Assembly: GCF_014396165.1 (NCBI RefSeq)
Contig: NZ_CP060715.1
Coordinates: 990,001-1,022,000 of the forward strand
Source: Erysipelothrix inopinata
GTDB lineage: Bacteria > Bacillota_I > Bacilli_A > Erysipelotrichales > Erysipelotrichaceae
Direction of reading: 5' to 3'
DNA length: 32,000 bases
Shown one piece after another: positions 11,366-26,313 of the stretch. The position numbers and the translations under genes are program-made. Position 1 is the stretch's first letter. Every line of letters begins with the position of its first letter. Under the pieces are notes generated by a model. It did no database searches and was not told the DNA's origin. It saw only the letters and a list, made by a program, of their open reading frames with translations.

Positions 11366-11901
11366 TTTACTTTATTTTCAGTTTCATGTGTATCTATGAT
11401 TTCTGCATCGATGATGGGATCTACAATCTCCTCGGGTTTGTTTTCTGTAAGAGAAGCAGTTTCAAGCGCTTCTTTTTCAATTTTGATTTCTTCTAATTTA
11501 GAATTAGCTTGGGATAGTTTTTCTTTTTGACGTTTTTTAGAGAGGTGTCCAAGGTAGACAATCCATCCCGCAACGTTTCCAGCAATGTTCACAACAATCC
11601 AGACAAAGATACCGGATTGAGTGGCGGTATCAATACCGTAAATCATCGTTGCATAATATAACGAGATAAAAGCAGCGATACTACCAATTCCGTAAAATAT
11701 ATTCAGTGCCCATGATCTAAATTGAAGAATAAAAAATAAATAAAGGCTAAACCCTAGAGACACTACAACTTGATTCAACAATGCATCGAACGTGAAATGA
11801 GCCCCTATAACTAAAAAGACTAAAATAACAAAGGTTAACATGCTGGCAAAAAACATTCCCAGACTGATAAATAGTGATTCTCGTAAGTGTTGTTTGTTCA
11901 T
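11347..11901 (-). CDS. Hypothetical integral membrane protein (about 4 TM) with a charged C-terminal tail
   Basis: 184 aa with an AGGAG-type RBS (aaaggagtctcattATG). Four hydrophobic segments are followed by KKRQKEKLSQANSKLEEIKIEKEALE... I recognise no family. Confidence 0.7.
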   Translation of the reverse strand: MNKQHLRESLFISLGMFFASMLTFVILVFLVIGAHFTFDALLNQVVVSLGFSLYLFFILQFRSWALNIFYGIGSIAAFISLYYATMIYGIDTATQSGIFVWIVVNIAGNVAGWIVYLGHLSKKRQKEKLSQANSKLEEIKIEKEALETASLTENKPEEIVDPIIDAEIIDTHETENKVKTSLKD

Positions 11902-11983
11902 AATGAGACTCCTTTAATAAAATATACCACATTTAGTTAAAAATGCATTCACTTTGATGTATTATAAGAGTAGAGGTGCAAAT

Positions 11984-12580
11984 ATGACACATAATTTAAA
12001 AATAGAGGGAATGGGCAAGGTTGTCGTCTCTCCAGACATGATGCGATTGAATTATGAGTTAGTTCAGACCGGTAACTCATATGCAGATGTATTTCATAGT
12101 CTCAAAAAGCAATATGCAATTGTAATTGAAGCATTTAAGAAGGTTGGCTTGAATACAGCATTCATCAAGACATCTTCAATTGATGTGGAAATGGATGAGG
12201 AATCAACAAAGAAAACTCAATTTAGAGCGAGACAACGTTTAATCTATGAAGATAGAGTTGATTTAAATCGCTTGACTCAACTTTTGGATGGCTTACAAGA
12301 AACAGATAACTTTAACTTTTCATTATCTTATTTTGTAAAAGATCCAACACCCCATCTCAATGATGCTTTAATTCTAGCAATCAATGAGTCAACAGATAAA
12401 TCAAAGATTATTGCGGAAAGTTCGGGAATACGTTTGGGACACATCACAAGCATTGAATATGCAAACAATAATTATGCTCCAGTGATGCATCGTGCAGTTG
12501 CAATGGACTCCTATGGAGAACTGAATGTCGATGATATCATCTTTACGCAAACCGTTACAATGTCATGGGAAATTAAGTAG
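11984..12580 (+). CDS. SIMPL/DUF541 family protein (YggE-like)
   Basis: LKIEGMGKVVVSPDMMRLNYELV is the characteristic SIMPL N-terminus. I prefer ATG 11984, which lies 5 nt after AGAGGTG (11972-11978), over the track's TTG at 11954. Confidence 0.7.
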   Translation: MTHNLKIEGMGKVVVSPDMMRLNYELVQTGNSYADVFHSLKKQYAIVIEAFKKVGLNTAFIKTSSIDVEMDEESTKKTQFRARQRLIYEDRVDLNRLTQLLDGLQETDNFNFSLSYFVKDPTPHLNDALILAINESTDKSKIIAESSGIRLGHITSIEYANNNYAPVMHRAVAMDSYGELNVDDIIFTQTVTMSWEIK

Positions 12581-12607
12581 GCTATCATAAGATAGCCTTT
12601 TCTTTTG
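12579..12607 (+). terminator. Rho-independent terminator after the SIMPL gene
   Basis: AGGCTATC (12579-12586), loop ATAA, GATAGCCT (12591-12598), then TTTTCTTTT. Confidence 0.75.
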
Positions 12608-12614
12608 GAACTCT

Positions 12615-12628
12615 TGGGAAATTTCCCA
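12615..12628. promoter_or_regulatory. Perfect 14-bp palindrome TGGGAAATTTCCCA, candidate operator upstream of the PTS EIIC gene
   Basis: The sequence is self-complementary when read directly. It lies 33-46 nt upstream of a TATAAT box (12661-12666), i.e. over the expected -35 region, and no good -35 hexamer is present. Confidence 0.4.
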
Positions 12629-12676
12629 GAAGAATGAATGGATATCTATGAGGGTTGATTTATAATCTTAGTGTAA

Positions 12677-12695
12677 CCGATATCAAGAATATCGG
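12677..12695 (+). promoter_or_regulatory. Inverted repeat CCGATAT-caaga-ATATCGG in the 5' leader of the PTS EIIC gene
   Basis: 7-bp arms with a 5-nt spacer, located between the TATAAT box and the AGGAGG RBS (12698-12703). No T-run follows, so it is not a terminator. It could be an operator or a leader RNA hairpin. Confidence 0.3.
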
Positions 12696-12709
12696 ATTAG
12701 GAGGAAAAA

Positions 12710-13996
12710 ATGGATCGTTTTATTCAATTTATTGAAGAAAAAATGGTGCCACGTGTTTCTAAAGTAACAAACACACGTTACTTTGGAGCATTGAAATCAG
12801 GATTTATGGTGATTATGCCACTTACAATCATTGGATCAATATTCTTATTGATTACTGATTTCCCATTACCAGGATATGCAGAGTTTATGGCAGGTATCTT
12901 TGGAGCAGATTGGACATCATATTTGGATTCAGCTTATCGTGCAACATTTAATCTTATGGGGCTTCTTCTTGCAGGAACATTAGCGTATCGACTTGCAGAA
13001 GATTATAAATTAGATGCGTTATCAACCATGGTATTATCATTGGTTGCATATGTTGTGGTATTACCTAAATCTGTATTAACAGAAGGGGGCGAAACTGTAG
13101 GGCGAGTCCTATCGTTTACATGGCTTGGAACTCAAGGCGTTATCACAGCAATTATCATGGCATTTGTTACTGTTGAAATTGTGAGACTGTGTGTTCAAAA
13201 GAATTTAACAATTAAAATGCCAGATTCAGTTCCATCAATGGTTTCCCAATCATTCAGTGCATTAATTCCAGGTTTAGTAGTTGTTATCGTAAGTTTACTA
13301 TTAAGTGGATTATCACGAATTGTAGCGGGTTCATTCCCAGAATTAATTTATCAAATTATTCAAATACCACTTGAAGGACTTACGTCTTCACTTGGAGCAA
13401 TTCTTGTGGTTGCTGGATTGAATGGCTTCTTATGGTGGTTTGGGATTCACCCAACAGTTGTGAACTCAATTGTGAATCCGCTTCTCAATGCAAACTCAGT
13501 TAAAAACTTTGAACTATTCCAAGCAAACAATCTGACAATGCAAACCGGTAATGTAGGTACCATTCAAATGATTGATCAATTTGCTACGATTGGTGGTGCA
13601 GGACTTACTTTAGGTCTTGTAATTGCTATGATCTTTGTCGCAAAATCATCACGTCTAAAAACAATGACAAAGTTAATCGGAGTTCCATCAATTTTTAATA
13701 TTAATGAACCAATTATCTTTGGTCTCCCAGTTGTCTTTAATCCATTGATGTTAATTCCAGTCACAATTGCGCCAATGGTATCCGTACTGATTGCATACTT
13801 CGCTATGAAGATTGGATTTATGCCAATGTTCAATGGTGTTATGGCACCATGGCCTACACCACCCATTTTCTCAGGATTTTTAGTAGCAGGATGGCAAGGT
13901 GCTGTAGTACAAGTTATATGTATTGCTGCCGCAACGATAATTTATTATCCATTTGTAAAAGCACTGGATAATCAATACTTAAAAGAAGAGAAATAA
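12710..13996 (+). CDS. PTS sugar transporter subunit EIIC (lactose/cellobiose/chitobiose family)
   Basis: 428 aa and polytopic. The N-terminus FIEEKMVPRVSKVTNTRYFGALKSGFMVIMPLTIIGSIFLLI and the later FLWWFGIHP / NINEPIIFGLP blocks are typical of Lac/Cel-family EIIC. No EIIA or EIIB gene is adjacent. Confidence 0.88.
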   Translation: MDRFIQFIEEKMVPRVSKVTNTRYFGALKSGFMVIMPLTIIGSIFLLITDFPLPGYAEFMAGIFGADWTSYLDSAYRATFNLMGLLLAGTLAYRLAEDYKLDALSTMVLSLVAYVVVLPKSVLTEGGETVGRVLSFTWLGTQGVITAIIMAFVTVEIVRLCVQKNLTIKMPDSVPSMVSQSFSALIPGLVVVIVSLLLSGLSRIVAGSFPELIYQIIQIPLEGLTSSLGAILVVAGLNGFLWWFGIHPTVVNSIVNPLLNANSVKNFELFQANNLTMQTGNVGTIQMIDQFATIGGAGLTLGLVIAMIFVAKSSRLKTMTKLIGVPSIFNINEPIIFGLPVVFNPLMLIPVTIAPMVSVLIAYFAMKIGFMPMFNGVMAPWPTPPIFSGFLVAGWQGAVVQVICIAAATIIYYPFVKALDNQYLKEEK

Positions 13997-14015
13997 TAAT
14001 TATTAAATAAAAAAA

Positions 14016-14024
14016 TGATATAAT
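14016..14024 (+). promoter_or_regulatory. Extended -10 element TGaTATAAT, possible internal promoter for rpiR-like/patB-like/ridA genes
   Basis: TGATATAAT read directly in the 50-nt gap between the EIIC gene and the regulator gene. No -35 was evaluated. Confidence 0.35.
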
Positions 14025-14046
14025 TCAAGAGAACGGAGGCGTTGTT

Positions 14047-14832
14047 GTGAGTTTAAGAAAACAAATCTCGCTTCATGCTCATACTTTGACAGAAATGGAG
14101 AAACAATTTCTCCGAAATCTCTTGGAAAATGCAAAAGAGTTTGAACCAAAGTCATTCACAATTGAAAATTTAGCGGAATACTTTAATGTTTCAAAAACAA
14201 GTGTCCATCGCTTCACACAAAAATTAGGTTATGACAGTTTTATCTATTTTCGAGATGATTTCTTTAGAAAAGATGACTCGCATGAAATGAAAGAAAAATG
14301 GGATGACCAATACGTAGAGATGTTGCAACATACATATGAATTGGTATCTTCCAGTATTACGGATAACTTACTTCAAAAAATGATTCATGCTAATCGTATT
14401 ACATTCTATGGAATGGGTATGAGTAATTATTTGGGTAAGATGTTTCAGATTAAATTACAGTTATACGGTAAAATCGTAGAACAGTATGATGATTCGAGAT
14501 ACATGAGACTTTCAGCTAAAAACTTAGTGAAGGGGGAAGATCTCGTTTTTGTCATTTCTCGAACTGGAAGACCTCCTGAAATTGTGGAAGCAATTGTTGA
14601 AGCAAGTTTACGTAACATTGATATTGTGTTAATAACTGAGGAACCTATTTCACCCTTAGGTTCTCTAGCGACAGACATTATTCAAACTTCTTTTAGTCAA
14701 GATTCTGATCAATCAATTGATACAAGAATCAATGCACATATTGCATTGGATATCTTGATGAATCGATTTATAGAATTCAAAGAGAAAGAAGCTTTAGATT
14801 ATGAAAGAAACGATAGCGATCTTGAATCGTGA
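14047..14832 (+). CDS. MurR/RpiR family transcriptional regulator (HTH_6 + SIS domain)
   Basis: GTG start 7 nt after GGAGG (14035-14039). HTH segment FTIENLAEYFNVSKTSVHRFTQKLGYDSF. SIS-like segment ITFYGMGMSNYLGKMFQIKLQLYGK ... LVFVISRTGRPPEIV. Confidence 0.85.
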   Translation: MSLRKQISLHAHTLTEMEKQFLRNLLENAKEFEPKSFTIENLAEYFNVSKTSVHRFTQKLGYDSFIYFRDDFFRKDDSHEMKEKWDDQYVEMLQHTYELVSSSITDNLLQKMIHANRITFYGMGMSNYLGKMFQIKLQLYGKIVEQYDDSRYMRLSAKNLVKGEDLVFVISRTGRPPEIVEAIVEASLRNIDIVLITEEPISPLGSLATDIIQTSFSQDSDQSIDTRINAHIALDILMNRFIEFKEKEALDYERNDSDLES

Positions 14833-15976
14833 AACTAATGGATCAAAAAAATGGAATCGAGAGTATATAAGTCATCGTTTTAAATTAAAAGATGATGTCA
14901 CCATCTACCCGTTATTCATTGCGGATATGGATTATCGCCATTCTGATCAATTATTGGAAGAAATAAAAGCAGTTGTAGCAGACGATGATTTTGGATATTT
15001 TGATTTACAACCTGCTTATTATCAAAGTATTCAGGATTGGTATCGAAACATCCACGATATAGATATCAATGAAGATTGGATCATTGCTGCCAATGGGACC
15101 ATAGCGGCGCTACATATGGCGGCACACTGTTTATCGAAAGATGACAACTACTTAATGCTAACGCCCGTCTATGGGGTGTTTAAAGCCCTCGCAGACGGTT
15201 TTGGAACACGATATGAAATGCCTTTAGGTACCGATGAAGAAAATCAATACTTTATAGATTTTAATCTATTCGAATCAATGATTGTGGAAAATCAAATTGG
15301 AACACTCTTATTCTGTAATCCACATAACCCATCAGGAAAAGTATGGTGCTATGAGGATCTCAAGATAATTGTAGAGATTTGTAAGAAATACGATGTAAAA
15401 ATATTTTCGGATGAAATTCATGCGGATTTTACGTGGAATAAACCCTTTGTGTCCCTCGTTGAATTCCAGGATATCTATGATAAAATACTTGTAAGCACCT
15501 CACCCAATAAATCTTTTAATACATCGGGTCTCACAACGTCGTACTTATTGTGTCCTTTCAAACCATGGAGAGATAAAATTGAGGAAACACTTAAGCTATT
15601 CCATATTTCCGTAAATCGAATGGGAGCAGAAGTATCACGTATTGTTTATGAATCTGGTGAAGTTTGGTTAAATGATATTAAAGAGATTATTTGGAATAAC
15701 ATAACCTTTGTATCTGATATTTGTCATGATGCAGGTTTAAAAGTAATTGTACCGGAGTCAGGATACCTTGTTTGGATATCGGGAAAAAAACTAAAAGATG
15801 TCGATGCCTATGTGCAAGACTTATCTTATGAAACAGGTGTATTACTTGAAACAGGAAGTCGTTTTATTGGCAACTATGATTCTCACTTGCGAATTAATGT
15901 CGCAACAGATTCAAAAATGCTGAAAGAAGCCATGATTCTATTTACGAATCATTATAAGAACTATAAAGGAGAGTAA
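14801..15976 (+). CDS. PLP-dependent aminotransferase class I/II, PatB/MalY-type cystathionine beta-lyase (C-S lyase)
   Basis: 391 aa. Family hallmarks are N-terminal GSKKWN, LLFCNPHNPSGKVW, IFSDEIHADF and the PLP-lysine region STSPNKSFNTSGL. The start is uncertain, because ATG 14801 overlaps the regulator gene by 32 nt. Confidence 0.8.
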   Translation: MKETIAILNRETNGSKKWNREYISHRFKLKDDVTIYPLFIADMDYRHSDQLLEEIKAVVADDDFGYFDLQPAYYQSIQDWYRNIHDIDINEDWIIAANGTIAALHMAAHCLSKDDNYLMLTPVYGVFKALADGFGTRYEMPLGTDEENQYFIDFNLFESMIVENQIGTLLFCNPHNPSGKVWCYEDLKIIVEICKKYDVKIFSDEIHADFTWNKPFVSLVEFQDIYDKILVSTSPNKSFNTSGLTTSYLLCPFKPWRDKIEETLKLFHISVNRMGAEVSRIVYESGEVWLNDIKEIIWNNITFVSDICHDAGLKVIVPESGYLVWISGKKLKDVDAYVQDLSYETGVLLETGSRFIGNYDSHLRINVATDSKMLKEAMILFTNHYKNYKGE

Positions 15977-15977
15977 G

Positions 15978-16352
15978 ATGAAAAAAGTACATAATACAGA
16001 TAAAGCACCAAAAGCAATCGGACCTTACGTTCAAGCCGTTGAAGCAAATGGTTTTATTTTCACATCAGGACAACTTGGATTAAATCCTGAAACGGGAACA
16101 CTGCAAGAAGGCATTGAAGCACAAGCACATCAAGTTATGAAAAATCTACAATCTGTTTTAGAGAATGCCGGAAGTGACTTTTCTAAAGTAGTAAAGACAA
16201 CAATCTTGTTGTCAGATATTGCTGATTTCGCGACAGTTAATGAAATCTATGGAAGCTACTTTGGTGGTGAATTCCCTGCACGATCAGCGTATCAAGTTGC
16301 AACGCTACCTCTTGGTGGACTCATCGAAATTGAATTAATCGCACTAGCGTAA
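15978..16352 (+). CDS. ridA: RidA/YjgF/TdcF family reactive enamine/imine deaminase
   Basis: 124 aa. APKAIGPYVQAV..GFIFTSGQLGLNPETG ... KTTILLSDIADFATVNEIY ... PARSAYQVATLPLGGLIEIELIA is the canonical RidA pattern. The ATG lies 1 nt after the lyase stop codon. Confidence 0.9.
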   Translation: MKKVHNTDKAPKAIGPYVQAVEANGFIFTSGQLGLNPETGTLQEGIEAQAHQVMKNLQSVLENAGSDFSKVVKTTILLSDIADFATVNEIYGSYFGGEFPARSAYQVATLPLGGLIEIELIALA

Positions 16353-16400
16353 CGTGAGAACCATGTGATATTGGTACTAAGATTTTAAATGCTATACTCC

Positions 16401-16437
16401 AAAAACTCCATCATTACTAAAGACTGGAGTTTTTTTA
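16401..16437 (+). terminator. Rho-independent terminator after ridA
   Basis: AAAAACTCCA (16401-16410) pairs with TGGAGTTTTT (16425-16434). A T7 tail follows. Confidence 0.75.
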
Positions 16438-16550
16438 CAGAAAAATTTTTTGATGGAATTTTCATTTGAATATCACAATAGGAAGAGTCTGAAATGGTAG
16501 TTTAAATTAGTAAGCGTGAAATCGCTAAATATATTATTGGAAGGAATAGT

Positions 16551-17684
16551 ATGGGAAATGAACAAACTTGTTGGGAAATTCTAGGTATAGACAAAACTTA
16601 TGATACCAAGTTAATAAAAAGAGCTTACGCAACACAAGCTGCACTTGTTCATCCAGAGGAAGATGCTACTAAATTTATAATTTTACGTCGAGCGTATGAA
16701 CAGGCAATGGCAATATCTAGAGCGATGAATTCAATTCAAAATGATTATGACGAAAATAGTTATGTTTTAGAATCAAACATAACTAAATATTTGAATACCA
16801 GTACAGTCGATGGAGAAATAAGAAGTAGTAAATTTAATTTTGATAGTTTTGAAGAAATTAAAGATCAAAATCTGCAAACCAAACTAAATCTATTCTATAT
16901 CGATGCCTTTTTTAAAAGTATTAAAGTAAAAAGAAAAGTATCTATAAGCACAATCTGTAATCAACCTGAATTTTCGGATATATTAAGTGATCGTGATGCG
17001 ACAATTTATCTCTTAAATAATATATATTCCTATTTAAGAAGTATAAATGCCACCAATTCTGAACAAGCAGAACAGGTAATGAGAACAATAAGCAACTTTT
17101 GGTATTACGATGTTGAAATCGACGACAAAATATTTGGTATAATTAAAGAATTTCCAAAAGAACATGTTTATATAAATAAATATATAAAAATATTTATTAC
17201 TGCCGTAGTGTCATTACTGATAGCGGTTTTTAGCCTTATCGGCAGTTCTTTAATTCCAGAAAAACAGCATAAACTCAAGAACGAATTTGAACTATCGTAT
17301 AGTGTAAAACAAAATGTATTTAACGTTCAGTTTCCATACGATCATGGTATAGAGAGCTTTAATTTTATATTTGAAGATTATGAGACAGTCAATGTTCAGT
17401 TCTCAAATGTAGTAGGAGACGAAATAACAACTGATATAGAAACTTTTAAAAGAAATAATAATGAAAGAATTATTTACGAGCCGGATAAATGGGTTGTTGG
17501 AGTGTATGCTGATTTTAAGTATATGTCTGGTCGAAGTGGTCGGTATTTTATTCTAAGTGTTGGTCAATCAGAAGTCTTATACACGGTAGTTAGCAAAGAG
17601 GAGTTTGATGAAATCGTGGAAAATCCTTTAAAGTATAACGAAATAGAGACATTGATGTCAAAAACGACTCCAAGATATAAATAA
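16551..17684 (+). CDS. Membrane-anchored J-domain-like protein (J1) with HPE motif, shared central domain, one TM helix and ~140-aa extracytoplasmic C-terminal domain
   Basis: GGAAGG RBS. CWEILGIDKTYDTKLIKRAYATQAALVHPEEDATKFIILRRAYEQA resembles J-domain helices I-III, with HPE at 16650-16658. The TM helix IFITAVVSLLIAVFSLIGSSLI spans about 17190-17255. A beta-rich C-terminal domain follows. Confidence 0.7.
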   Translation: MGNEQTCWEILGIDKTYDTKLIKRAYATQAALVHPEEDATKFIILRRAYEQAMAISRAMNSIQNDYDENSYVLESNITKYLNTSTVDGEIRSSKFNFDSFEEIKDQNLQTKLNLFYIDAFFKSIKVKRKVSISTICNQPEFSDILSDRDATIYLLNNIYSYLRSINATNSEQAEQVMRTISNFWYYDVEIDDKIFGIIKEFPKEHVYINKYIKIFITAVVSLLIAVFSLIGSSLIPEKQHKLKNEFELSYSVKQNVFNVQFPYDHGIESFNFIFEDYETVNVQFSNVVGDEITTDIETFKRNNNERIIYEPDKWVVGVYADFKYMSGRSGRYFILSVGQSEVLYTVVSKEEFDEIVENPLKYNEIETLMSKTTPRYK

Positions 17685-17755
17685 AATAAAGTAAAAGCAA
17701 ATTCAAAATTAAGAGCTAAAAAAATTGAATTGATATAGATAGGTGGGAAAAAGAT

Positions 17756-19450
17756 ATGAGAGTTGCAATAGATTTAGGAACTACAAATAGCTTAGTTACA
17801 ATGAGAAATAATGGGAAAACTGAAATTATACCGAACCAATTTGGGAAACTTGTTACACCAAGCGTTGTCTATTCTAGGAAGAATAAAGTTTACGTCGGTG
17901 AGCTGGCACATCAACATGAGCTTGAAGATCCAGCTAATACATTTCGTGTTTTCAAAAGATCAATGGGAAAAAGCGATGAATTTGGTAGTGACAAACTAAA
18001 TGCGATAGACCTTTCCAGTTTGATTATTAAACAATTAATCAATGATGCAGAGTCGTATACAGGTGAAGTAGTTGATGAGGTTGTAGTTTCTGTTCCCGCA
18101 TATTTTACGGATTCACAAAGACAGGCAACGCGACAAAGCGCACTTCGTTGCGGTGTAGAATGTAATAGAATAATAAATGAACCTTCTGCTGCTGCGCTAG
18201 CATATTATGCAGAAACAAAGCAAGAAGGAATGGTTCTGGTATTCGATTTTGGTGGTGGAACCTTAGATGTAACAGTTGTAGATATTTTTGATAATATCGT
18301 AGACATTGTATCAATTTCAGGTGACAACAACTTGGGAGGTCATGATATAGATTTAATTATCAATGATGCGGTGTTAGAACAACATCCTGAGCTTAGCAAA
18401 ATTAGTTTAGAGCAGCGAAAAGTACTTGATAAAAAACTGGAAGATATGAAAATATCCCTGTCAGAGAATGAAGAGGCTAAAAACTCAATCAATATCGATG
18501 GACAAGAATATGAATTATCGATAACTCAAAAAGATTTAATCAATCGCAGCCATAGTATTCTTTTAAAAATCAGGGGTGTTGTCTCACGAGCATTAACAGA
18601 TGCGGGAATAAAATCAAGTGATATTGATGATGTCGTTTGCGTAGGTGGCTCATGTAAATCGATAATTATTCAAGAGTATTTACGAGAACTTATGAAACAA
18701 AACATTAATATTAAAGTCAATCCTGATGAAGCTATCGTAGTAGGCCTCGGTATGATGCTAGCCATAATGGATCGTGAAATTGAATACAAAGATATTGTTC
18801 TTACAGATGTATGTCCCTTCAGTTTAGGAGTACAAATGATCAATGATGTTTACTCTCCAATAATACGTAGAAACACTACATTACCTACTTCAAAAACGAA
18901 CTACTATGTGACAGTAGGTGATAATCAAATGTATATAAACTTTAGTGTTTATCAAGGAGAATCGGTTATGGCAAGTGTCAACAAATTGTTGATGAGCACG
19001 GATATTAAAGTTAATAGAAAACCTAAAGGTGAAGCAGGTGCGTATGTTACATTTTCTTATGATATTAATGGTATTTTGAAAGTCGAAATAAAAGGCGATG
19101 ATGTAAAACAAGAGTATCAAAATGAAATATTAACCAATACTCTTATTCCGAAAAAAGAGATTGAAAAAGCTCAAGCGCTAATAAGAAATCTAGATGTTCA
19201 AAAAAGTATGGGAAGAGAGGAACTTTTAAACGCTCGTTTTGGAAGACTATCCTATGAAATATCTGCCTCACAATCTCAACAATTACAAGCTTTATATTTA
19301 AATTACCAAGAAGAAAAACAAAATTTATCAAAAGGGGAAATGATTTTATTAATTAATAAGGTTAATAGTAGTCTTGATTATTTAGAGAAAACAGCCGATA
19401 ATCCTTTTGATAATCCTAAATTTGAAAGTTCAAACAATAAGTATAATTAA
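17756..19450 (+). CDS. Atypical Hsp70 family ATPase, HscC-like (not the housekeeping DnaK)
   Basis: 564 aa with AGGTGGG RBS. Actin-fold and Hsp70 motifs are IDLGTTNS, VVSVPAYFTDSQRQATRQSA, RIINEPSAAALAY, LVFDFGGGTLDVTVV, GDNNLGGHDIDL, VCVGGSCKS and NPDEAIVVGLG. The SBD entry is IVLTDVCPFSLGV. YSPIIRRNTTLPTSK and FSYDINGILKVEI match my recollection of E. coli HscC better than DnaK. No grpE, dnaJ or hrcA gene is nearby. Confidence 0.88.
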   Translation: MRVAIDLGTTNSLVTMRNNGKTEIIPNQFGKLVTPSVVYSRKNKVYVGELAHQHELEDPANTFRVFKRSMGKSDEFGSDKLNAIDLSSLIIKQLINDAESYTGEVVDEVVVSVPAYFTDSQRQATRQSALRCGVECNRIINEPSAAALAYYAETKQEGMVLVFDFGGGTLDVTVVDIFDNIVDIVSISGDNNLGGHDIDLIINDAVLEQHPELSKISLEQRKVLDKKLEDMKISLSENEEAKNSINIDGQEYELSITQKDLINRSHSILLKIRGVVSRALTDAGIKSSDIDDVVCVGGSCKSIIIQEYLRELMKQNINIKVNPDEAIVVGLGMMLAIMDREIEYKDIVLTDVCPFSLGVQMINDVYSPIIRRNTTLPTSKTNYYVTVGDNQMYINFSVYQGESVMASVNKLLMSTDIKVNRKPKGEAGAYVTFSYDINGILKVEIKGDDVKQEYQNEILTNTLIPKKEIEKAQALIRNLDVQKSMGREELLNARFGRLSYEISASQSQQLQALYLNYQEEKQNLSKGEMILLINKVNSSLDYLEKTADNPFDNPKFESSNNKYN

Positions 19451-19458
19451 GATAAAAG

Positions 19459-20172
19459 ATGACAGATAAATTTATAACATGTTGGGACATTCTTGAAATT
19501 AAGCCTACTTTGGATGTTAAGATAATCAAAAAAGCATACTCTGCTAAGGCAATTCTGAGCCATCCTGAAGAAAATTGCGAAAGATTTATAGAACTTCGCA
19601 GGGCATATGAAGAAGCAATCTTGTTTTCTAAAATCAACTCCCTTCCTTTCGAGAATGATTCTAACGTTCGAGACAATTCGCACAAGACTCGTGATGATCA
19701 AAGAAAAGACAAAATTTTAAATAAAAGCGAAATGTTTGATTTCAAGTTCGCAGATAACGATGACCTCTCTTCACAAGAGCATTATTTAAATAAGGTATTC
19801 ATTGAGGATTATTTTAGGAAAATTATGAAAAATCGTGATATCGCAGTAAACCAAATTATATATGAGGAAGAATTTTCACAAGTAATTGGCAATAAGAAAT
19901 CAGTGATATATTTGATAAAAAAATGTTATGTATTTCAAAAAGGAACAAATGCTAAAAACACCAAAGAAATTGGTACATTAATTCGTTTGTTAGAAAGACA
20001 ATGGTTTAGTGATAAAGAAGTAATTAGCATATTAGTAAAACTTGAAAACGATAGTAGATGGAATCAAATAGAGGAAACAGAAAACGCAGACTATGGATTG
20101 ATTTTTATTCTATTACCCTTTCTACCTCTCTTCTTATTTTTAATTTATCAAATAATTACCAATAATAATTAA
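19459..20172 (+). CDS. Tail-anchored J-domain-like protein (J2), HPE motif
   Basis: Starts 8 nt after the Hsp70 stop codon. CWDILEIKPTLDVKIIKKAYSAKAILSHPEENCERFIELRRAYEEA carries HPE at 19561-19569. It has the central domain shared with J1 and J3 (NQIIYEEEF, EIGTLIRLLERQW, DSRWN). The C-terminal TM is LIFILLPFLPLFLFLIYQII. Confidence 0.72.
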   Translation: MTDKFITCWDILEIKPTLDVKIIKKAYSAKAILSHPEENCERFIELRRAYEEAILFSKINSLPFENDSNVRDNSHKTRDDQRKDKILNKSEMFDFKFADNDDLSSQEHYLNKVFIEDYFRKIMKNRDIAVNQIIYEEEFSQVIGNKKSVIYLIKKCYVFQKGTNAKNTKEIGTLIRLLERQWFSDKEVISILVKLENDSRWNQIEETENADYGLIFILLPFLPLFLFLIYQIITNNN

Positions 20173-20262
20173 ATAGGTTAAATTCCGCTAAATAAGAGAT
20201 TAAAAATAATTACAAGATGATTACTACTAAATAAAAGCAGTAGCAATGCAAAGGAGATAGAT

Positions 20263-20967
20263 ATGGATAGATATTATTCTTGTTGGGATGTATTAGAGAT
20301 AGCACCAACTAAAGATAAGTCAGAAATAAAAAGAGCTTACGCAAAAAAGGCAAGAACTGTACATCCCGAAGAAAATCATGATGAATTTATTCAAGTACGG
20401 CAGGCCTATGAGCAAGCAATTATATTTGCAAAGATAAATTGTAAAGATTATTTCGAAGAAGAAAATATTCAGATTATTGAAGATAGTGATATGAACTACA
20501 ACTACGAAATATCAGAGAAAAATACGATGCGGAGCGAACGATTTGATTTCACAGCGGTAGAAGGTAATGACCCGAGTTTATTACAACATAATTTAAATAT
20601 TATCTTTATCGATGACTATTTTTCAAAAATATTAAAGGATAGAAGAATTGCTGCAAACCAAATAATTTACGAGTTTGAGTTCGCTGAGGTTGTTAATCAT
20701 AAGGAATCTGTTAAATATTTGCTCGAGAAATGCTATAAGTTCTTAAGGGAGATTTGGGCAACGGATGCGAATGAAATTGGAACTTTAATGCGAACATTAG
20801 AGCGTAGATGGTCCCAAGATTCTGAAGTACGAGAGCTAATAAGACAACTTGAAAAAGATAGTCGATGGAATCGAAATGAAGAGGAAGAACAAAAAAAGGG
20901 ATATGTAAGATTGGCTATCATCCTAGCTTTGCTAATTTTTATGATGGCAATTTCTTTGAATAGTTGA
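20263..20967 (+). CDS. Tail-anchored J-domain-like protein (J3), paralogue of J2, HPE motif
   Basis: AAGGAG RBS. CWDVLEIAPTKDKSEIKRAYAKKARTVHPEENHDEFIQVRQAYEQA carries HPE at 20362-20370. It has the same central domain (NQIIYEFEF, EIGTLMRTLERRW, DSRWN). The C-terminal TM is LAIILALLIFMMAISL. Confidence 0.72.
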   Translation: MDRYYSCWDVLEIAPTKDKSEIKRAYAKKARTVHPEENHDEFIQVRQAYEQAIIFAKINCKDYFEEENIQIIEDSDMNYNYEISEKNTMRSERFDFTAVEGNDPSLLQHNLNIIFIDDYFSKILKDRRIAANQIIYEFEFAEVVNHKESVKYLLEKCYKFLREIWATDANEIGTLMRTLERRWSQDSEVRELIRQLEKDSRWNRNEEEEQKKGYVRLAIILALLIFMMAISLNS

Positions 20968-21026
20968 GTAAATAACTAAGCACGTATTGAAGATTACAAA
21001 AGAATATCAAAAAGCTATAAAATAGA

Positions 21027-21566
21027 TTGCCGAAAAGGAAAAAAATGATAAAAGTAGAGAATAAAAAGAATTATAAAATAATCAATAAGAAATTAGAAGA
21101 GTCGATTGCTGCTGATGAAACATGTGTTAAAATACGAAAATTATTAAAAAAACTAGTATATTTCGTTCTTGGAGCGAGTGTTGTAATGGTGATTGTTTTA
21201 ATTGCATCAATTTTTCTTAGTGGGGTTCATTCAACAATGAAATTAAACTTACAAATCATAATCGGATTACCAGTTTCGTTTGTTATACTTGGAGCCATGT
21301 TACAGGGGATTTATCGAGAAGGAGCGAAAGCTTGTATGATTTATTTACTATTTCAAGGAGTTTACGGAATTATGGGTAGCTTGAATGTCATTCGATCAGG
21401 AAATGTATTCGTTGCCTTGATGATAGGATGGATCCTTCTTATATATTCAGTCACTCTATGTGGAATTGGTGTATTCGCATTATTAAACAAAGATGTAAAA
21501 TATTTGAATCAGTTTGTTAAGACTGAACGTAAAAGGATTGAAGAAGATATGGCTGAGGAAATATAA
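21027..21566 (+). CDS. Hypothetical 4-TM membrane protein, last gene of the Hsp70/J operon
   Basis: 179 aa from TTG 21027, or 173 aa from ATG 21045. A Lys-rich N-terminus is followed by four hydrophobic helices and an acidic tail. A strong terminator follows directly. I recognise no family. Confidence 0.6.
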   Translation: MPKRKKMIKVENKKNYKIINKKLEESIAADETCVKIRKLLKKLVYFVLGASVVMVIVLIASIFLSGVHSTMKLNLQIIIGLPVSFVILGAMLQGIYREGAKACMIYLLFQGVYGIMGSLNVIRSGNVFVALMIGWILLIYSVTLCGIGVFALLNKDVKYLNQFVKTERKRIEEDMAEEI

Positions 21567-21584
21567 ATCTTCGGCTTTAAAATA

Positions 21585-21614
21585 AAAAGATAGGATCGTA
21601 AATTCCTATCTTTT
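21585..21614. terminator. Bidirectional rho-independent terminator closing the Hsp70/J operon and the convergent oxidoreductase gene
   Basis: Perfect 11-bp arms AAAAGATAGGA (21585-21595) and TCCTATCTTTT (21604-21614) with an 8-nt loop. A-rich and T-rich tracts lie on both sides. Confidence 0.8.
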
Positions 21615-22522
21615 TATTTTATTGATTGATAAACAGCATTTACAAGTTCGTGAGTAATTCGTGTAGACTCATACTCGACGGTATCAGGTTGTTTATTGAT
21701 TTCAACTGCGTGGAGGAATGTTTCCACAACTTGTACGAATCCTCGTTTTTCTAAAGTCGTTGTCCAATCAGAAAAATGGTGGATTGTAAGGGTTCCATTT
21801 TGCTGTACTCTGAGATCTGTCATGTCTTCACAACGAGAGAAACTATCTACAGACATTACCTCAACAGATTCGCTCCGACCTCCAGAGTGCATGTTTATGG
21901 TGGCAGTACCCGTACAGTTTTCGGTATGAACTTCAAGGTGTGCGTGATCTAATATGCCATCATGAGTGACTGTTCGAACATGGTGAGAAATGATAGGCTC
22001 ATCGAGGAGATAAACTAGCGTATCAACACAATGGATCATCATATCAAAAATGGCAAACTTAGCTTCTTGGTCTGTATTTTCTCGATGTTTCTGTACCATA
22101 ATCATAGACTTATTGGAAACTTTCTTTTGTTCTTGGTAGTGAGGTGCGAAGCGTCTATTGAAACCGGTCATTAGAATGAGTTTGTTGGATTTTGCGTAAT
22201 CAAGGAGTGCATTTACTTCATCGATATTTTCACTGATTGGTTTATCTACATAGACATGTATTTTTGCTTCTAAGAATTTTTGTATTAATTCTGCATGCGT
22301 ATCAGTAGGCGTATGAATCATCACAGCATCCAATCCACAGTTAACAAGTTCATCCAAATCTGTAAATGTATTCTTGAAACCATAAGTTTTAGTAAGTGTT
22401 TCAAGTTTATCAGAGTTGCTGGAGTATAAGCACCAATCGACACGACTATTCAAATTTGAGTAGGTTGGTAAATAGGCTTTCATAGCAATATTTCCAAGAC
22501 CGATAATTCCAATTTTCAACAT
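21614..22522 (-). CDS. Gfo/Idh/MocA family NAD(P)-dependent oxidoreductase
   Basis: 302 aa with AAGGAG RBS. The N-terminal Rossmann segment is MLKIGIIGLGNIAMKAYLP. The family's EKP motif is present in variant form as YVDKPIS. Confidence 0.8.
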   Translation of the reverse strand: MLKIGIIGLGNIAMKAYLPTYSNLNSRVDWCLYSSNSDKLETLTKTYGFKNTFTDLDELVNCGLDAVMIHTPTDTHAELIQKFLEAKIHVYVDKPISENIDEVNALLDYAKSNKLILMTGFNRRFAPHYQEQKKVSNKSMIMVQKHRENTDQEAKFAIFDMMIHCVDTLVYLLDEPIISHHVRTVTHDGILDHAHLEVHTENCTGTATINMHSGGRSESVEVMSVDSFSRCEDMTDLRVQQNGTLTIHHFSDWTTTLEKRGFVQVVETFLHAVEINKQPDTVEYESTRITHELVNAVYQSIK

Positions 22523-22618
22523 TTATAATCTCCTTTTTTATTTATCATATCATAGCATTCATTCAGGTATAAAAATATAAAAGTACCAGGATCAAATTAA
22601 TCCTAGTACAATTTTTCT

Positions 22619-23575
22619 CTAGTTTTGATGTAGATTGTTTATTTCTTTTATTAGGGGATTGAACCATTCGCCGAAGCTGTCAGATTCAATCAACTCAGAT
22701 CTACTTTTAGAATTTGAACGATAACTATCGACATTCTCTTTAAATGTTTTATCAACATGGTCATTATATATTGGAGATTGATATTTTGATTGTCGATAAT
22801 ACATTTTTAAATTTGGATCCTCAATGAGATCCTTTTCATCCGCAAAATATTCGTCATAGTGTAAATCTACGATATTATTTGAATTCTTATCGTAAACAAC
22901 TTGCATGCTAGCAAAAAGTCCACCACCAACATCTTGAGTCACAGAAATCATGGTTTGATTTGATTTCTGCTTCAACTTTGGTTCAATTTGATGTAGCAAA
23001 GGGATGAAACCTTTAGAACCACTCGTTGATGAACCTTCTGGAGTCTTGAAACTGCCTGATACCGAATTTTTTTCAATAACTTGATGTTCCAGGTAAGTCA
23101 TGGTATTCACAATGGTAACAAGTGAAACGTTGGTTCGTTCATTCTGCATTTGCCAGTTTGCGTATCCGGATGTTCTTTTTGTTTGGTTTTGCCAAGCAAC
23201 TGCGAAATAATCCCAAGTAGCTCGCTCATCTAGATGTACATGAATGATTCTATCCGTGAGAGGTTCCTTAACAATTGAGAGCGTAGCAAGATAACCGCCA
23301 TTAAAATAAAGTGAATCATAGTAGAAGTCACCTTGAATAATTCCAACTGCAGGCCTTCCAGACCATTTCATTTTAGCTTCTTTCTCTTCACCAATATATA
23401 CTTGTCCATTATTTTTACCTGTAGTAGCACCAGAGACAATATCAAATTCACTCTCTTGACCATTGACTTCAAATTTTACATGCGATTTAGAATTTTCTTC
23501 AATTTTATTTTGGAAATTACTTGTACATCCACTCAGTAGTATACAAAGTAAGATAAACGGGATAAACTTCTTCAT
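22619..23575 (-). CDS. Lipoprotein of unknown function with a flavinylation-like DIVSGATT motif
   Basis: 318 aa with AGGAG RBS. The signal peptide and lipobox are MKKFIPFILLCILLSG-C. The motif D45-I-V-S-G-A-T-T52 is encoded at 23420-23443. I do not recognise the rest of the protein. Confidence 0.75.
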   Translation of the reverse strand: MKKFIPFILLCILLSGCTSNFQNKIEENSKSHVKFEVNGQESEFDIVSGATTGKNNGQVYIGEEKEAKMKWSGRPAVGIIQGDFYYDSLYFNGGYLATLSIVKEPLTDRIIHVHLDERATWDYFAVAWQNQTKRTSGYANWQMQNERTNVSLVTIVNTMTYLEHQVIEKNSVSGSFKTPEGSSTSGSKGFIPLLHQIEPKLKQKSNQTMISVTQDVGGGLFASMQVVYDKNSNNIVDLHYDEYFADEKDLIEDPNLKMYYRQSKYQSPIYNDHVDKTFKENVDSYRSNSKSRSELIESDSFGEWFNPLIKEINNLHQN

Positions 23576-23608
23576 TGCAACTCCTAACTCTTTTAAAACT
23601 ATGCGTTT

Positions 23609-23637
23609 ATATTAGAGGAGCATCTGTATTCCGTCAA
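23609..23637 (-). promoter_or_regulatory. Sigma-A type promoter for the lipoprotein gene
   Basis: On the minus strand: TTGACG (23632-23637), a 17-nt spacer, then TAATAT (23609-23614). This is about 30 nt upstream of the RBS and ATG at 23575. Confidence 0.6.
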
Positions 23638-23959
23638 ACGGATAGCATTGATTTCACAAAATGTTCATATTGTGATTTTAAAGATCAAATCAATGCGAAA
23701 TTACCTTACCGCCACTCATGAAAGAGTTTAAGATGAATTCAGAAGAAGAATAAGTGTGCCCATGATAAATGATTCACGATATCACAATGAGACTTTTACA
23801 ATTAAAAATACCACCCTCGTAGTTGAGAGTAGTATTTATTTTGTTTCCCTTAAATTATATTTTATCATACTTTAAGAATTTAGTAAGAACTAACGTATTA
23901 ATTTAAATATTATATAATATGTATATAGTAGGATGTGATGATAAAGAAAGAGGTGTCAT

Positions 23960-24157
23960 ATGAAAACCAAAACTAATTTTCAAATGTTTTTTCAGTTAAC
24001 AGGTATTTTTATTCTCATGATTAACGGGTTACTGAAATCTGCTTTCGATAACTCGAATTTTTGGGTCGTGATTTCTAACTGGATTGTCTATACTTACCTC
24101 TTCATAGCAATTTGTCTCACTATCAAATATATCCACGAAGGGAGAAAACAAAAATAA
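23960..24157 (+). CDS. Small hypothetical membrane protein (65 aa, 2 TM)
   Basis: AGAGGTG RBS 5 nt upstream of the ATG. Two hydrophobic helices are present. A strong terminator follows directly. No homology evidence. Confidence 0.45.
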   Translation: MKTKTNFQMFFQLTGIFILMINGLLKSAFDNSNFWVVISNWIVYTYLFIAICLTIKYIHEGRKQK

Positions 24158-24164
24158 AGAGTCT

Positions 24165-24218
24165 AACTGTAACGAATTGGGTTTTGTCATGATACTCTTT
24201 CGTTACAGTTTTTTTTCG
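24165..24218 (+). terminator. Rho-independent terminator
   Basis: Perfect 12-bp arms AACTGTAACGAA (24165-24176) and TTCGTTACAGTT (24199-24210), followed by a T run to 24218. Confidence 0.75.
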
Positions 24219-24304
24219 TGCCTGCGCGCTAGTTTTGATTAAAGGGATGCAGAGACTACTTAATTGTTGTATCCCCACAGTATCCCCATAGGAACTTTGG
24301 CAAT

Positions 24305-24326
24305 AAAAAACCCTCTGTTAAGAGGG
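24305..24326 (-). terminator. Rho-independent terminator downstream of tRNA-Lys
   Basis: CCCTCT (24311-24316), loop GTTA, AGAGGG (24321-24326). An A6 run at 24305-24310 gives a T6 tail on the minus strand. Confidence 0.65.
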
Positions 24327-24338
24327 TGTAATATTCAA

Positions 24339-24414
24339 TGGTGCTCCGACACGGGCTCGAACCGTGGACCCACTGATTAAGAGTCAGTTGCTCTGCCGAC
24401 TGAGCTATCGGAGC
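24339..24414 (-). tRNA. tRNA-Lys (anticodon CUU)
   Basis: The reverse complement is GCTCCGA-TA-GCTC-AGTCGGCA-GAGC-A-ACTGA-CTCTTAA-TCAGT-GGGTC-CACGG-TTCGAGC-CCGTG-TCGGAGC-ACCA. This folds by hand into a 76-nt cloverleaf (7/4/5/5-bp stems). It has a GTTCGA T-loop, an encoded CCA and anticodon loop CT-CTT-AA. Confidence 0.93.
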
Positions 24415-24424
24415 GTGCTAATAT

Positions 24425-24452
24425 ATTATAACGCTATCAAAAAATAATACAA
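24425..24452 (-). promoter_or_regulatory. Candidate promoter of tRNA-Lys
   Basis: On the minus strand: TTGTAT (24447-24452), a 16-nt spacer, then TATAAT (24425-24430). The -10 box ends 10 nt before the mature tRNA 5' end. Confidence 0.5.
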
Positions 24453-24563
24453 TCATTTTTTAGAAAAAAGATAAAAAATATAAGAATGGAATACCGATAC
24501 TTTTAAGCCTAATTAAAGCGATAAAAACAACTATGTGAAACTAAGGATATCACCGGTTGAAGC

Positions 24564-24592
24564 TTGCGAGTGTTTGGGAGATGACTTATAAT
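24564..24592 (+). promoter_or_regulatory. Sigma-A type promoter of the TrxR-like/HAD operon
   Basis: TTGCGA (24564-24569), a 17-nt spacer, then TATAAT (24587-24592). A GGGAG RBS and ATG 24617 follow. Confidence 0.6.
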
Positions 24593-24616
24593 TACTAACA
24601 GTTAAGGGAGACAATT

Positions 24617-25492
24617 ATGATAGAAACAGATGCATTAATCATTGGTAAAGGTCCTGCAGGAATTCAGGCTTCTGTATATCTTAAACGGGGAAATGTAGAT
24701 CCAATTGTTATTGGTAAAGGCTATGGTGCGAGTGAGCAAGCGGAAGTTATTGATAACTTCTATGGGTTTACTTCAATTGGTGGTGTTGAATTGATTGAAA
24801 GAGGTATTGAACAAGCCCGATCACTTGGAATCGATGTTGTGGATGATGAAGTGACATCTATATCTTTTGATGGTGAGGGTTATGTTGTTACTACAATTAA
24901 TGAAGAGTATCGCGCGATGTCTTTGATGTTAGCCACTGGTTCTCATCGTAATGTACCTCGTATTCGTAAAATTAGGAATTATGCTGGGAAAGGTGTTTCT
25001 TATTGTGCTGTCTGTGACGCATTTTTCTATAGAAACAAAACAGTTGCTGTAGTAGGTAGTGCTGAGTATGCAGCACATGAAGCTTCTGAACTTGTGGAAA
25101 TTGTTGATAAAGTATATGTCCTTACAAATGGTGAAGCTCTCAGCGGTACCTTTGATGAACGTTGTGTTATCATTGATAAGAAAGTGAAATCAGTTTATGG
25201 CAATGAAAAGGTTGAAGGTGTTGAATTTGAAGATCAATCAACACTTGAACTCGAAGGTCTTTTTGTTGCGATTGGTTCTGCAACAAGTACAGACCTTGCA
25301 AACAAGCTCGGTGTGTATGTTGAAAATGGACGTATTGTTGTGAATGCGGAAATGGAAACAAATTTACCCGGACTCTATGCAGCAGGAGATTGTACACCTG
25401 GCGTTCAACAGATTGCGAGAGCAGTATCTGATGGTTGTGTTGGGGGCATGAACATGATTAGCTATATTCGAAATAAGAAGCGAGGAAAGTAA
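24617..25492 (+). CDS. Low-Mr thioredoxin-reductase-like flavoprotein (CxxC present, NADPH-binding signatures absent)
   Basis: 291 aa. FAD motif IIGKGPAG. Redox-active C130-A-V-C133-D is encoded at 25004-25015. The C-terminal FAD motif is GLYAAGDC. The expected GGGDSAxEEA and HRRxxxR positions read VGSAEYAAHEA and LTNGEAL. Confidence 0.75.
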   Translation: MIETDALIIGKGPAGIQASVYLKRGNVDPIVIGKGYGASEQAEVIDNFYGFTSIGGVELIERGIEQARSLGIDVVDDEVTSISFDGEGYVVTTINEEYRAMSLMLATGSHRNVPRIRKIRNYAGKGVSYCAVCDAFFYRNKTVAVVGSAEYAAHEASELVEIVDKVYVLTNGEALSGTFDERCVIIDKKVKSVYGNEKVEGVEFEDQSTLELEGLFVAIGSATSTDLANKLGVYVENGRIVVNAEMETNLPGLYAAGDCTPGVQQIARAVSDGCVGGMNMISYIRNKKRGK

Positions 25493-26259
25493 TGAAATTA
25501 TTTGCAAGTGATTATGATGGAACGTTATTTAAAGATCGTATTATTAGAGAAGATGATTTACACTCAATTCGAAAATTTAGAGAACAAGGTCATAAGTTTG
25601 GCTTAGTATCAGGAAGATCTATCGATTCATTAAAAACAGAAATTGAAAAACATGATATTCCTGTTGACTTCATAGTAGGAATCAATGGTGGTGCTGTTGA
25701 AACGGGTGAAGGAGAACAACTTTTCATTAGAATGATGGAAACTGACATCGCTCATGAATTGATTGAAGCAGTGGAAAACTTCGGAGTCAAGTTTTATGGT
25801 GCTAACGATGGATATCGTCTAAGTCGCGTCTATTGTAGTGATGATGTGGATGATTGTTTCAAGCCTAATATTAATTTAGTACCTATGGATATCATGCTTG
25901 ATGAAGGTGTGAGTGCTATGTATGTGTGGGTAGGTGATGAAGATCGTGCCCAAACACTCGCAAATATGATTACAGAGCAATATGGTGATCGAGGTATTAT
26001 TGCGTATCCTAATGTACACTCTGTAGATATTGGTATTAAAGGTATTAGCAAATCAACAGGTTTAGAGATGATTATTGACCATTATAATGTTGATGACACT
26101 GTTTATACTATTGGAGATAGCTTCAATGACGTACCTATGATTAAAGATTTCCATGGGTTTGTAATGGAAAATGGTGTTGATGAAGTGAAGGCATATGGTA
26201 AAGCAGTTCATGAAACTGTTGGATATGCACTCAATGCAGTCTTAAAAGACATTCAATAA
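25492..26259 (+). CDS. HAD-IIB (Cof-type) phosphatase
   Basis: The ATG overlaps the upstream stop codon (TAATG). Motif I is FASDYDGTL, and the motif III/IV region is GDSFNDVPM. 255 aa. Confidence 0.8.
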   Translation: MKLFASDYDGTLFKDRIIREDDLHSIRKFREQGHKFGLVSGRSIDSLKTEIEKHDIPVDFIVGINGGAVETGEGEQLFIRMMETDIAHELIEAVENFGVKFYGANDGYRLSRVYCSDDVDDCFKPNINLVPMDIMLDEGVSAMYVWVGDEDRAQTLANMITEQYGDRGIIAYPNVHSVDIGIKGISKSTGLEMIIDHYNVDDTVYTIGDSFNDVPMIKDFHGFVMENGVDEVKAYGKAVHETVGYALNAVLKDIQ

Positions 26260-26284: not shown

Positions 26285-26313
26285 TATGATAGAACTATAA
26301 AGAAGGTGAACAA

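Follow-up and report, generated by a model that had tools for sequence, protein, structure and literature searches.

Within a 32,000-nucleotide (nt) stretch of the Erysipelothrix inopinata genome (assembly GCF_014396165.1, contig NZ_CP060715.1, positions 990,001 to 1,022,000 of the forward strand; hereafter the window), a group of co-directional genes encodes one Hsp70 together with three J-proteins, which we term J1, J2, and J3. Our analyses make it likely that these genes form an accessory HscC–DjlB/DjlC-type chaperone module, probably acquired horizontally, that combines a single Hsp70 with three membrane-anchored paralogous co-chaperones. HscC is the third bacterial Hsp70 type. We know of no defined client or role for it more than 20 years after its description, and the Escherichia coli representative, with its J-proteins DjlB and DjlC, was reportedly described by Kluck et al. 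in 2002.

The Hsp70 and its J-proteins

The four genes of the module, as given in the list of open reading frames (ORFs), are the following, with lengths in amino acids (aa).

16551–17684, + strand: J1, 377 aa
17756–19450, + strand: predicted HscC-type Hsp70 ATPase, 564 aa
19459–20172, + strand: J2, 237 aa
20263–20967, + strand: J3, 234 aa

The 564-aa Hsp70 matches the Pfam HSP70 family (PF00012, E = 1.6e-105) and aligns with E. coli HscC at 35% identity across 512 residues (E = 3e-92), and its scores against the NCBIfam equivalog models for DnaK and HscA all reach about half of the cut-off (e.g., 354 bits vs. 648). The ATPase residues D6, K67, E142, D164, and T169 align with D8, K70, E171, D194, and T199 of DnaK, and the alignment also shows that the interdomain linker, DIVLTDV, is retained, in agreement with the intact nucleotide-binding motifs reported in a preliminary description of this DNA. 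HscC proteins have been characterized by a length of 550–580 aa, a deletion in lobe I, the loss of the GrpE loop, and an insertion of 4–8 aa in loop L1,2 (PMC8215388). When the window protein was aligned together with DnaK, HscA, and HscC of E. coli and indels were examined by these criteria, three of the four HscC indels checked were present in it. The lobe-I deletion (DnaK 76–101), a gap of 20–22 residues, and a 6-residue loss at the GrpE-signature loop each fall in the same place as in E. coli HscC, and a 9-residue gap in lid helix B lies at the position of the 8-residue gap of E. coli HscC. The length of the protein is likewise within the HscC range. The preliminary description had pointed to HscC on the basis of a short lid and of sequence strings in the substrate-binding domain (SBD); these strings do align with E. 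coli HscC, and the helix-B deletion is common to both proteins.

In a neighbor-joining (NJ) tree of 99 Hsp70s, a distance method, the window protein groups with Erysipelothrix relatives, with Bacillota proteins named HscC, and with the HscC proteins of E. coli and Gilliamella, and DnaK (including Erysipelotrichaceae DnaK encoded next to an HPD-containing DnaJ) and HscA stand apart from this clade. The split was recovered in 200 of 200 bootstraps on a 40-sequence subset, with the window protein outside housekeeping DnaK. Sequence matches in the PDB included no HscC structure, the best being DnaK entries. Collectively, and as judged from sequence, the window Hsp70 is an HscC-type protein, neither DnaK nor HscA.

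The three J-proteins share an N-terminal module in which the HPD triad is replaced by HPE (HPEE in J1, J2, and J3). This replacement is a hallmark of DjlB and DjlC, is found in about 1% of J-domains, and is the sole tolerated variant of HPD (PMC10410713; PMC13254874). Indeed, the N terminus of DjlC, taken from the E. coli K-12 locus, corresponds to the J1–J3 module, and the motif CW.[IV]L.I..T.D...I[KR].AY......HPE....F..LR.AYE.A is common to J1–J3, DjlB, and DjlC. BLASTP comparison with DjlC gave E = 5e-13 for J1 and E = 2e-9 for J3, and the Pfam DnaJ model (PF00226; gathering score, 27.8 bits) scores J1, J2, and J3 at 25.4, 27.5, and 36.3 bits, respectively. The AlphaFold model of J3 (AF2, 15-sequence alignment) has a mean predicted local distance difference test (pLDDT) score of 78, and in it a J-domain with pLDDT >90 over most of its length is followed by a disordered acidic linker (residues 63–99), an all-α region (104–199), and a transmembrane (TM) helix (201–233). 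Foldseek comparison of this model with the PDB retrieved only solved J-domains, including 5nro_B, a DnaJ J-domain bound to DnaK (root-mean-square deviation of 1.6 Å over 56 columns), and 2m6y. The modules that had initially been called J-like are, on this sequence and modeling evidence, genuine J-domains, and J1, J2, and J3 are predicted to be J-domain proteins of the DjlB/DjlC kind.

Beyond the J-domain, the proteins share a central domain, as had been claimed; across the J module and central domain together, J2 shares 45% and J1 shares 31% identity with J3. A profile search showed that these central domains are shared with only a handful of other proteins, and the central helical domain of J3 has no significant fold match in the PDB (the top hit was Fis1/TPR-like, probability 0.25). 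The disordered acidic linker ends, just before the helical domain, in an [FL]-[DN]-F motif (KFNFD at residues 94–98 of J1, MFDFK at 92–96 of J2, and RFDFT at 93–97 of J3; window positions ~16830–16845, 19732–19746, and 20539–20553), which recurs in relatives as LFDFN or LFDFL and recalls the DIF motif of the glycine/phenylalanine (G/F) regions of DnaJ.

Hydropathy analysis places a single TM segment in each protein. In J2 (TM 215–233 of 237 aa) and J3 (TM 214–232 of 234 aa) it lies at the extreme C terminus, as in E. coli DjlB (449–467 of 475) and DjlC (458–476 of 483), and J2 and J3 are thus predicted to be tail-anchored like DjlB and DjlC. J1 is composed of an HPE J-domain (approximately residues 5–55), a helical central domain, a TM segment at ~206–230, and a further C-terminal domain of ~147 aa. 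Because the J-domain must meet a cytosolic Hsp70, this tail is presumably extracytoplasmic. Hydropathy thus agrees with the single TM segments, the tail anchors of J2 and J3, and the additional domain of J1 noted earlier; the external location of that domain is presumed from the topology argument. A search of 5.8 billion proteins for homologues of J1 returned only its own cluster and no family placement. A single-sequence AlphaFold model of J1 was unusable (mean pLDDT 41), with only a β-rich tendency in the ectodomain, and BLASTP among the ectodomains of J1, of a 456-aa J-protein from a related strain (locus L003, described below), and of the relatives L001 and L005 gave nothing significant.

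A strain-variable slot

The remaining features of the locus are the following.

16337–21581, no strand assigned: strain-variable slot, from the RidA gene to the convergent Gfo/Idh/MocA oxidoreductase gene, defined by strain comparison
16401–16437, + strand: upstream intrinsic terminator, a hairpin followed by a T7 run, −10.6 kcal/mol
21045–21566, + strand: small polytopic membrane protein, 173 aa, ~4 TM segments; the ORF as listed opens at 21027
21578–21621, no strand assigned: bidirectional terminator, inverted repeat 21578–21595 / 21604–21621, −18.8 kcal/mol

The ORF coordinates and co-directional layout of the preliminary description were reproduced. The intergenic gaps from J1 through Hsp70, J2, and J3 to the listed membrane protein ORF are 71, 8, 90, and 59 nt, such that J2 starts 8 nt past the Hsp70 stop codon, and the gaps contain no stable hairpin, their folding energies being only −2 to −4 kcal/mol; the description of gaps of 8–90 nt with no internal terminator is borne out. 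Both hairpins said to bracket the operon are also present. The upstream one ends the RpiR–aminotransferase–RidA unit and forms the left edge of the operon. The downstream one, a perfect 18-nt inverted repeat with A and T runs on its flanks, also serves the convergent oxidoreductase gene and is the right edge of the variable slot; it is kept in strain L090, in which the chaperone genes are missing (see below). The operon has a GC content of 29–31%, compared with ~35–36% in its flanks. Pattern searches of the window found no CIRCE or CtsR operator with ≤3 mismatches, an Rfam scan found no structured RNA leader, and, as had been noted, the window contains no hrcA, grpE, or Zn-finger dnaJ gene, the neighbors being metabolic genes. 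Database annotation names the products at the locus "Hsp70 family protein," "J domain-containing protein," "hypothetical protein," and "DnaJ domain-containing protein."

Comparison of near-identical Erysipelothrix strains shows that the region is variable as a whole. The L090 contig is 97–99% identical in DNA to the window over positions 7238–16336 and 21582–27163, and between its RidA and oxidoreductase genes it has 0.87 kb that encodes one 173-aa membrane protein, with no Hsp70 gene and no J genes. Locus L003 encodes an Hsp70 that is 99% identical in protein to that of the window and shows ~96% DNA identity from J1 into J3, yet the two sequences part at the J2 stop codon, identity returning at the downstream gene; here, a single 456-aa J-protein (TM 219–237, with ~220 aa beyond) replaces J3 and the membrane protein gene. 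The 3′ end of the operon thus behaves as an exchangeable cassette. In total, the slot has at least three, possibly four, configurations (L090:5609–6480, L003:2900–4400, L089:10900–10952), with breakpoints at the 3′ end of the RidA gene and immediately ahead of the shared palindrome of the terminator; the L089 contig departs inside this palindrome, where it ends. A repeat search found no att-like repeats at the slot borders, where the terminator palindrome is the only strong element, and no integrase was found in the slot neighborhood. The absence of the module from L090, its lower GC content, and the lack of a CIRCE or CtsR operator support its accessory status, and the locus is a hypervariable, probably accessory slot into which the module probably came by horizontal transfer.

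For the small membrane protein, the likeliest start codon is ATG 21045, which is preceded by an AAAGGA ribosome-binding site and gives the 173 aa of the GenBank protein; TTG 21027 is a less likely start. It had been described as a 4-TM protein, and it is indeed polytopic, but only three TM segments are clear, with one or two weaker ones. The protein matches no Pfam or NCBIfam family, and a homologue search returned only its own cluster, with no family placement. In a comparison covering L090, L091, L092, and L003, the L090 protein proved to be an allele of it (173 aa, 37% identical, E = 5e-39) at a site without Hsp70 or J genes; an L090-type allele also adjoins the oxidoreductase gene on L091 and L092, short contigs from other samples, and in L003 the membrane gene is absent while the Hsp70 and J genes stay. 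Because it stands alone in L090 and is missing from L003, this gene is separable from the chaperone genes. It probably resides in the slot without being central to the operon, though it may be cotranscribed, and the five-gene unit originally claimed is not supported.

The surrounding genes are metabolic. Positions 231–13996 of the window hold a cluster for mucin or host-glycan utilization, which includes an ATP-binding cassette (ABC) permease, a lacto-N-biose phosphorylase (1125–3317), a phosphotransferase system (PTS) EIIC component, a Listeria-Bacteroides-repeat surface protein (3545–4591), and a 1812-aa GH101 endo-α-N-acetylgalactosaminidase-like protein (5891–11329). An RpiR-type regulator ORF (14047–14832, GTG start) and an aminotransferase ORF (14801–15976) overlap by 32 nt as listed; the overlap could be genuine, or the aminotransferase could begin further downstream. 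A tRNA-Lys (CTT) gene lies at 24339–24414 on the − strand, ~2.7 kb past the variable slot, with no integrase nearby.

Distribution of HscC–J-protein pairs

A J gene adjoins an HscC-type gene in Erysipelothrix, Streptococcus, Pseudobutyrivibrio, Pseudobacteroides, Paenibacillus, Diplocloster, and Gilliamella. It lies downstream of hscC, usually within ~20 nt of the stop codon, and upstream in Streptococcus and Diplocloster, and the genes around the pair differ in each relative. A contig scan with an HscC alignment gave DnaK genes among the matches listed, missing the genome of the window itself and most HscC loci; the DnaK loci served as an outgroup. Across the 89 loci, a classical HPD DnaJ occurs only at DnaK loci, and an HPE J-protein stands beside most HscC-type genes (L001–L006, L014, L015, L043, and the window). 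At L009, L010, L012, and L013, no such protein was detected, and three of these four contigs measure 3–4.5 kb. In the relatives examined, the neighborhood is conserved with respect to the Hsp70–J pairing. Some relatives differ in architecture: in L014 and L015 the J module is followed by TPR repeats, and the HscC-adjacent J-protein of Diplocloster modestus (L011:4577–7891) is a soluble, TPR-containing protein of 1104 aa with an NPE triad, the histidine having been lost. The upstream J-protein of Streptococcus sp. S784/96/1 (L004) has no TM helix, and its locus encodes a 522-aa polytopic membrane protein of no Pfam family (L004:7673–9241) with an 11-nt overlap with the 3′ end of hscC, such that the membrane link may come in trans.

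The pairing was also recovered starting from the J-proteins. A search of 1.84 billion cluster representatives with a profile of J1–J3 gave 4,864 with E ≤ 1e-3, and nearly all of the best 147 further hits, which were inspected, carry HPE at the extreme N terminus. Of the 116 top hits with a length of 150 aa or more, 88 have one or more TM segments (50 with a single TM and a C-terminal extension, 19 tail-anchored, and 19 polytopic) and 28 have none. A metagenome scan using the J motif alone yielded 80 loci, a redundant sample dominated by one gut species, at 63 of which an Hsp70 gene lies directly upstream; by BLAST against references, 63 of these 63 are HscC-type. One J-protein is encoded at 74 of the 80 loci, and two or three at none. 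Three J-proteins were seen only in the window and a sister strain, E. coli having two. N-terminal HPE J-domains are thus nearly always linked to HscC-type Hsp70s, and they belong mostly to membrane proteins. The system had been put forward as uncharacterized; no experimental work on it was found, but two-gene modules of HscC and a TM-anchored HPE J-protein are common in Bacillota and already carry annotations, which makes the system less exotic than supposed.

Comparison with known systems, proposed mechanism, and alternatives

In E. coli, HscC (YbeW) has DjlB (YbeS) and DjlC (YbeV) as partners, as reviewed in PMC8215388, and comparison with the K-12 locus agrees with the earlier statement that hscC sits beside djlB and djlC. 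The window Hsp70 belongs to the same clade as E. coli HscC, with its nucleotide-binding domain (NBD) and lid deletions, and the window J-proteins, like DjlB and DjlC, have a short N-terminal HPE J-domain and, in J2 and J3, a single C-terminal TM anchor. In both organisms more than one paralogous J-protein is encoded beside one Hsp70, without GrpE, in a gene cluster that stands outside the heat-shock regulon. However, there are differences between the systems. The window has three J-proteins rather than two; their central domains are ~100 aa, compared with ~380 aa in DjlB and DjlC, and are not detectably homologous to these; and both J1 and the L003 variant continue in a further domain past the TM segment and would therefore be type-II rather than tail-anchored. 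Moreover, unlike in E. coli, the window genes are all co-directional in one operon and the module is strain-variable. Gut Bacillota pairs annotated "molecular chaperone HscC" and "J domain-containing protein" show the same Hsp70 and J-domain types and TM anchoring, and their J gene starts a few nt past the hscC stop codon, as J2 does, but they have one J-protein each, as opposed to the three of the window, one of which (J1) is encoded upstream of hscC. No experimental work on these pairs was found in the literature.

More distant systems offer partial parallels. As in DnaK–DnaJ–GrpE, the catalytic residues and interdomain linker of the window Hsp70 are intact and J-driven ATP hydrolysis would be the expected trigger, but the window Hsp70 belongs to another clade, its J-proteins have HPE rather than HPD and neither a Zn finger nor a G/F region, GrpE and HrcA/CIRCE control are lacking, and the module is dispensable at the strain level. 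DjlA illustrates that a membrane-tethered J-domain can localize an Hsp70, although its N-terminal anchor and C-terminal J-domain are in the opposite order to those of J1–J3. Sec63/ERdj and Pam18/Tim14 are functional analogues only, in which a membrane-fixed J-domain recruits a soluble Hsp70; homology to them is limited to the J-domain, there is no translocon, and a cytoplasmic Hsp70 could not pull export.

Taking E. coli HscC/DjlC and the general working of Hsp70s as models, we propose a mechanism for the window module in which the topology in the membrane, the stimulation of the ATPase, the identity of the clients, and the physiological role are inferred. The J-proteins would be held in the cytoplasmic membrane by their single TM segment with the HPE J-domain facing the cytoplasm, where it would dock on ATP-bound HscC and trigger ATP hydrolysis. 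HscC would then clamp segments of polypeptide at the membrane's inner face, at a site or on a client that may be chosen by the diverged helical central domains together with the J1 ectodomain. GrpE would be dispensable for the window HscC because HscC-type NBDs are without the GrpE-binding loop.

Several observations weigh against the reading of the locus as an HscC–DjlB/DjlC-kind module. The fourth HscC indel, the L1,2 insertion (4–8 aa) in the β-subdomain of the SBD, which E. coli HscC has, is absent from the window Hsp70; this loop is of DnaK length in the window protein, P0005, and P0066, four residues longer in E. coli HscC, and has a long insertion in Diplocloster L011. Other Bacillota members are also without the insertion, which therefore varies inside the HscC clade. 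J1 and J2 fall slightly under the PF00226 gathering score, but such scores are normal for the class because the experimentally validated E. coli proteins DjlC (19.3 bits) and DjlB (21.1 bits) score lower still. The central domains of J1–J3 showed no similarity to the middle region of DjlB/DjlC by hhalign (probability 0.1, E = 0.6), a comparison of five Erysipelothrix-type with five DjlB/C-type sequences whose shallow alignments (effective number of sequences, Neff, ~2.8) give it low power, and the idea of the middle region as a shared "Djl" domain was dropped on this result. The DUF1266 (YbeR/YbeU) and Sel1 (YbeQ/YbeT) genes of E. coli have no counterpart among the scanned or annotated ORFs of the window. 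Both the cotranscription of the operon and its promoter are putative; a weak promoter proposed at 16450–16479 (TTGATG/CACAAT) was not listed by a promoter scan, which found no strong promoter for the operon. In addition, the physiological role of E. coli HscC is itself obscure, the protein being known through Cd2+ and UV sensitivity (PMC8215388), and the literature searched contained no experiment on any Gram-positive HscC.

Three alternative explanations were considered. Automatic naming would make the genes housekeeping DnaK/DnaJ heat-shock machinery, the UniRef name being "Chaperone protein DnaK" and the top NCBIfam matches being DnaK models. This is effectively refuted by scores far under the DnaK/HscA equivalog cut-offs, by the position of the Hsp70 outside the DnaK clade, even of the Erysipelotrichaceae DnaK found beside an HPD DnaJ, by a window without grpE, hrcA, Zn-finger DnaJ, or CIRCE, and by the absence of the gene from the near-identical strain L090. 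A five-gene system with the membrane protein as an obligatory partner or client of the Hsp70 and J-proteins appears unlikely. Its gene is co-directional, follows J3 after a 77-nt gap with no terminator before it, and has the downstream terminator in common with the chaperone genes, and the 522-aa polytopic protein whose gene overlaps the hscC 3′ end in Streptococcus L004 suggests that membrane partners recur; on the other hand, the 37%-identical allele is alone in the L090 slot and recurs beside the oxidoreductase gene on L091 and L092, and L003 combines J1–Hsp70–J2 with a different J-protein and no membrane gene.

The third possibility, raised in the preliminary description, is an envelope conflict or sensing system, in which type-II J receptors would sense phage, bacteriocin, or envelope damage and the Hsp70 would be the effector or transducer; diversifying J ectodomains would report an extracellular or envelope event, such as the binding of phage, bacteriocin, or a host factor, to the Hsp70, and strains would swap J cassettes within a fixed chromosomal slot to change specificity. 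Such a system would fit an operon of low GC that is present, absent, or swapped in strains with 97–99% identical flanks, ectodomains of J1, the L003 J-protein, and relatives that lack mutual similarity, and a J1 with no homologue among the proteins searched. In Erysipelothrix sp. GCA_011421495.1 (L001:9176–11301), a TNT-toxin-domain protein and DUF4926 are encoded downstream of the HscC–J pair and a serine recombinase upstream, an arrangement that resembles a polymorphic-toxin island, and a contig classed as viral (L097:6001–8327; IMG/VR UViG_3300025304_000159) carries an HscC-like Hsp70 gene followed by one for an HPE J-protein. Other Hsp70 hits on viral contigs look like phage DnaK. However, PADLOC-DB v2 gave no hits save a chance-level Cas11b match (E = 0.02), PHROG profiles gave no informative match, and the operon has no nuclease, toxin, protease, or other effector. 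No defense or mobile genes lie near it, and it is surrounded, as are the loci of most relatives, by ordinary metabolic genes. Tail-anchored family members, moreover, would have no external part with which to sense a cue. The literature searched contained no work on Gram-positive HscC and none tying HscC to phage defense. With strain variability as the sole hint in its favor, the conflict reading is improbable; if true, conflict or sensing systems built on an Hsp70 would be a new class, and the long-orphan HscC family would gain a function.

As an accessory module of the HscC–DjlB/DjlC kind, the locus belongs to a type that is already known but functionally obscure, and what is unusual here is the presence of three J-proteins and a swappable slot. 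Near-isogenic strains with the module, without it, and with a swapped J-protein provide natural genetics, and three paralogous J-proteins with differing membrane topologies would allow a test of whether the non-J part sets HscC specificity at the membrane. The HPE J-domain rule, in turn, may serve to annotate thousands of proteins now listed as "hypothetical" or as weak DnaJ matches.

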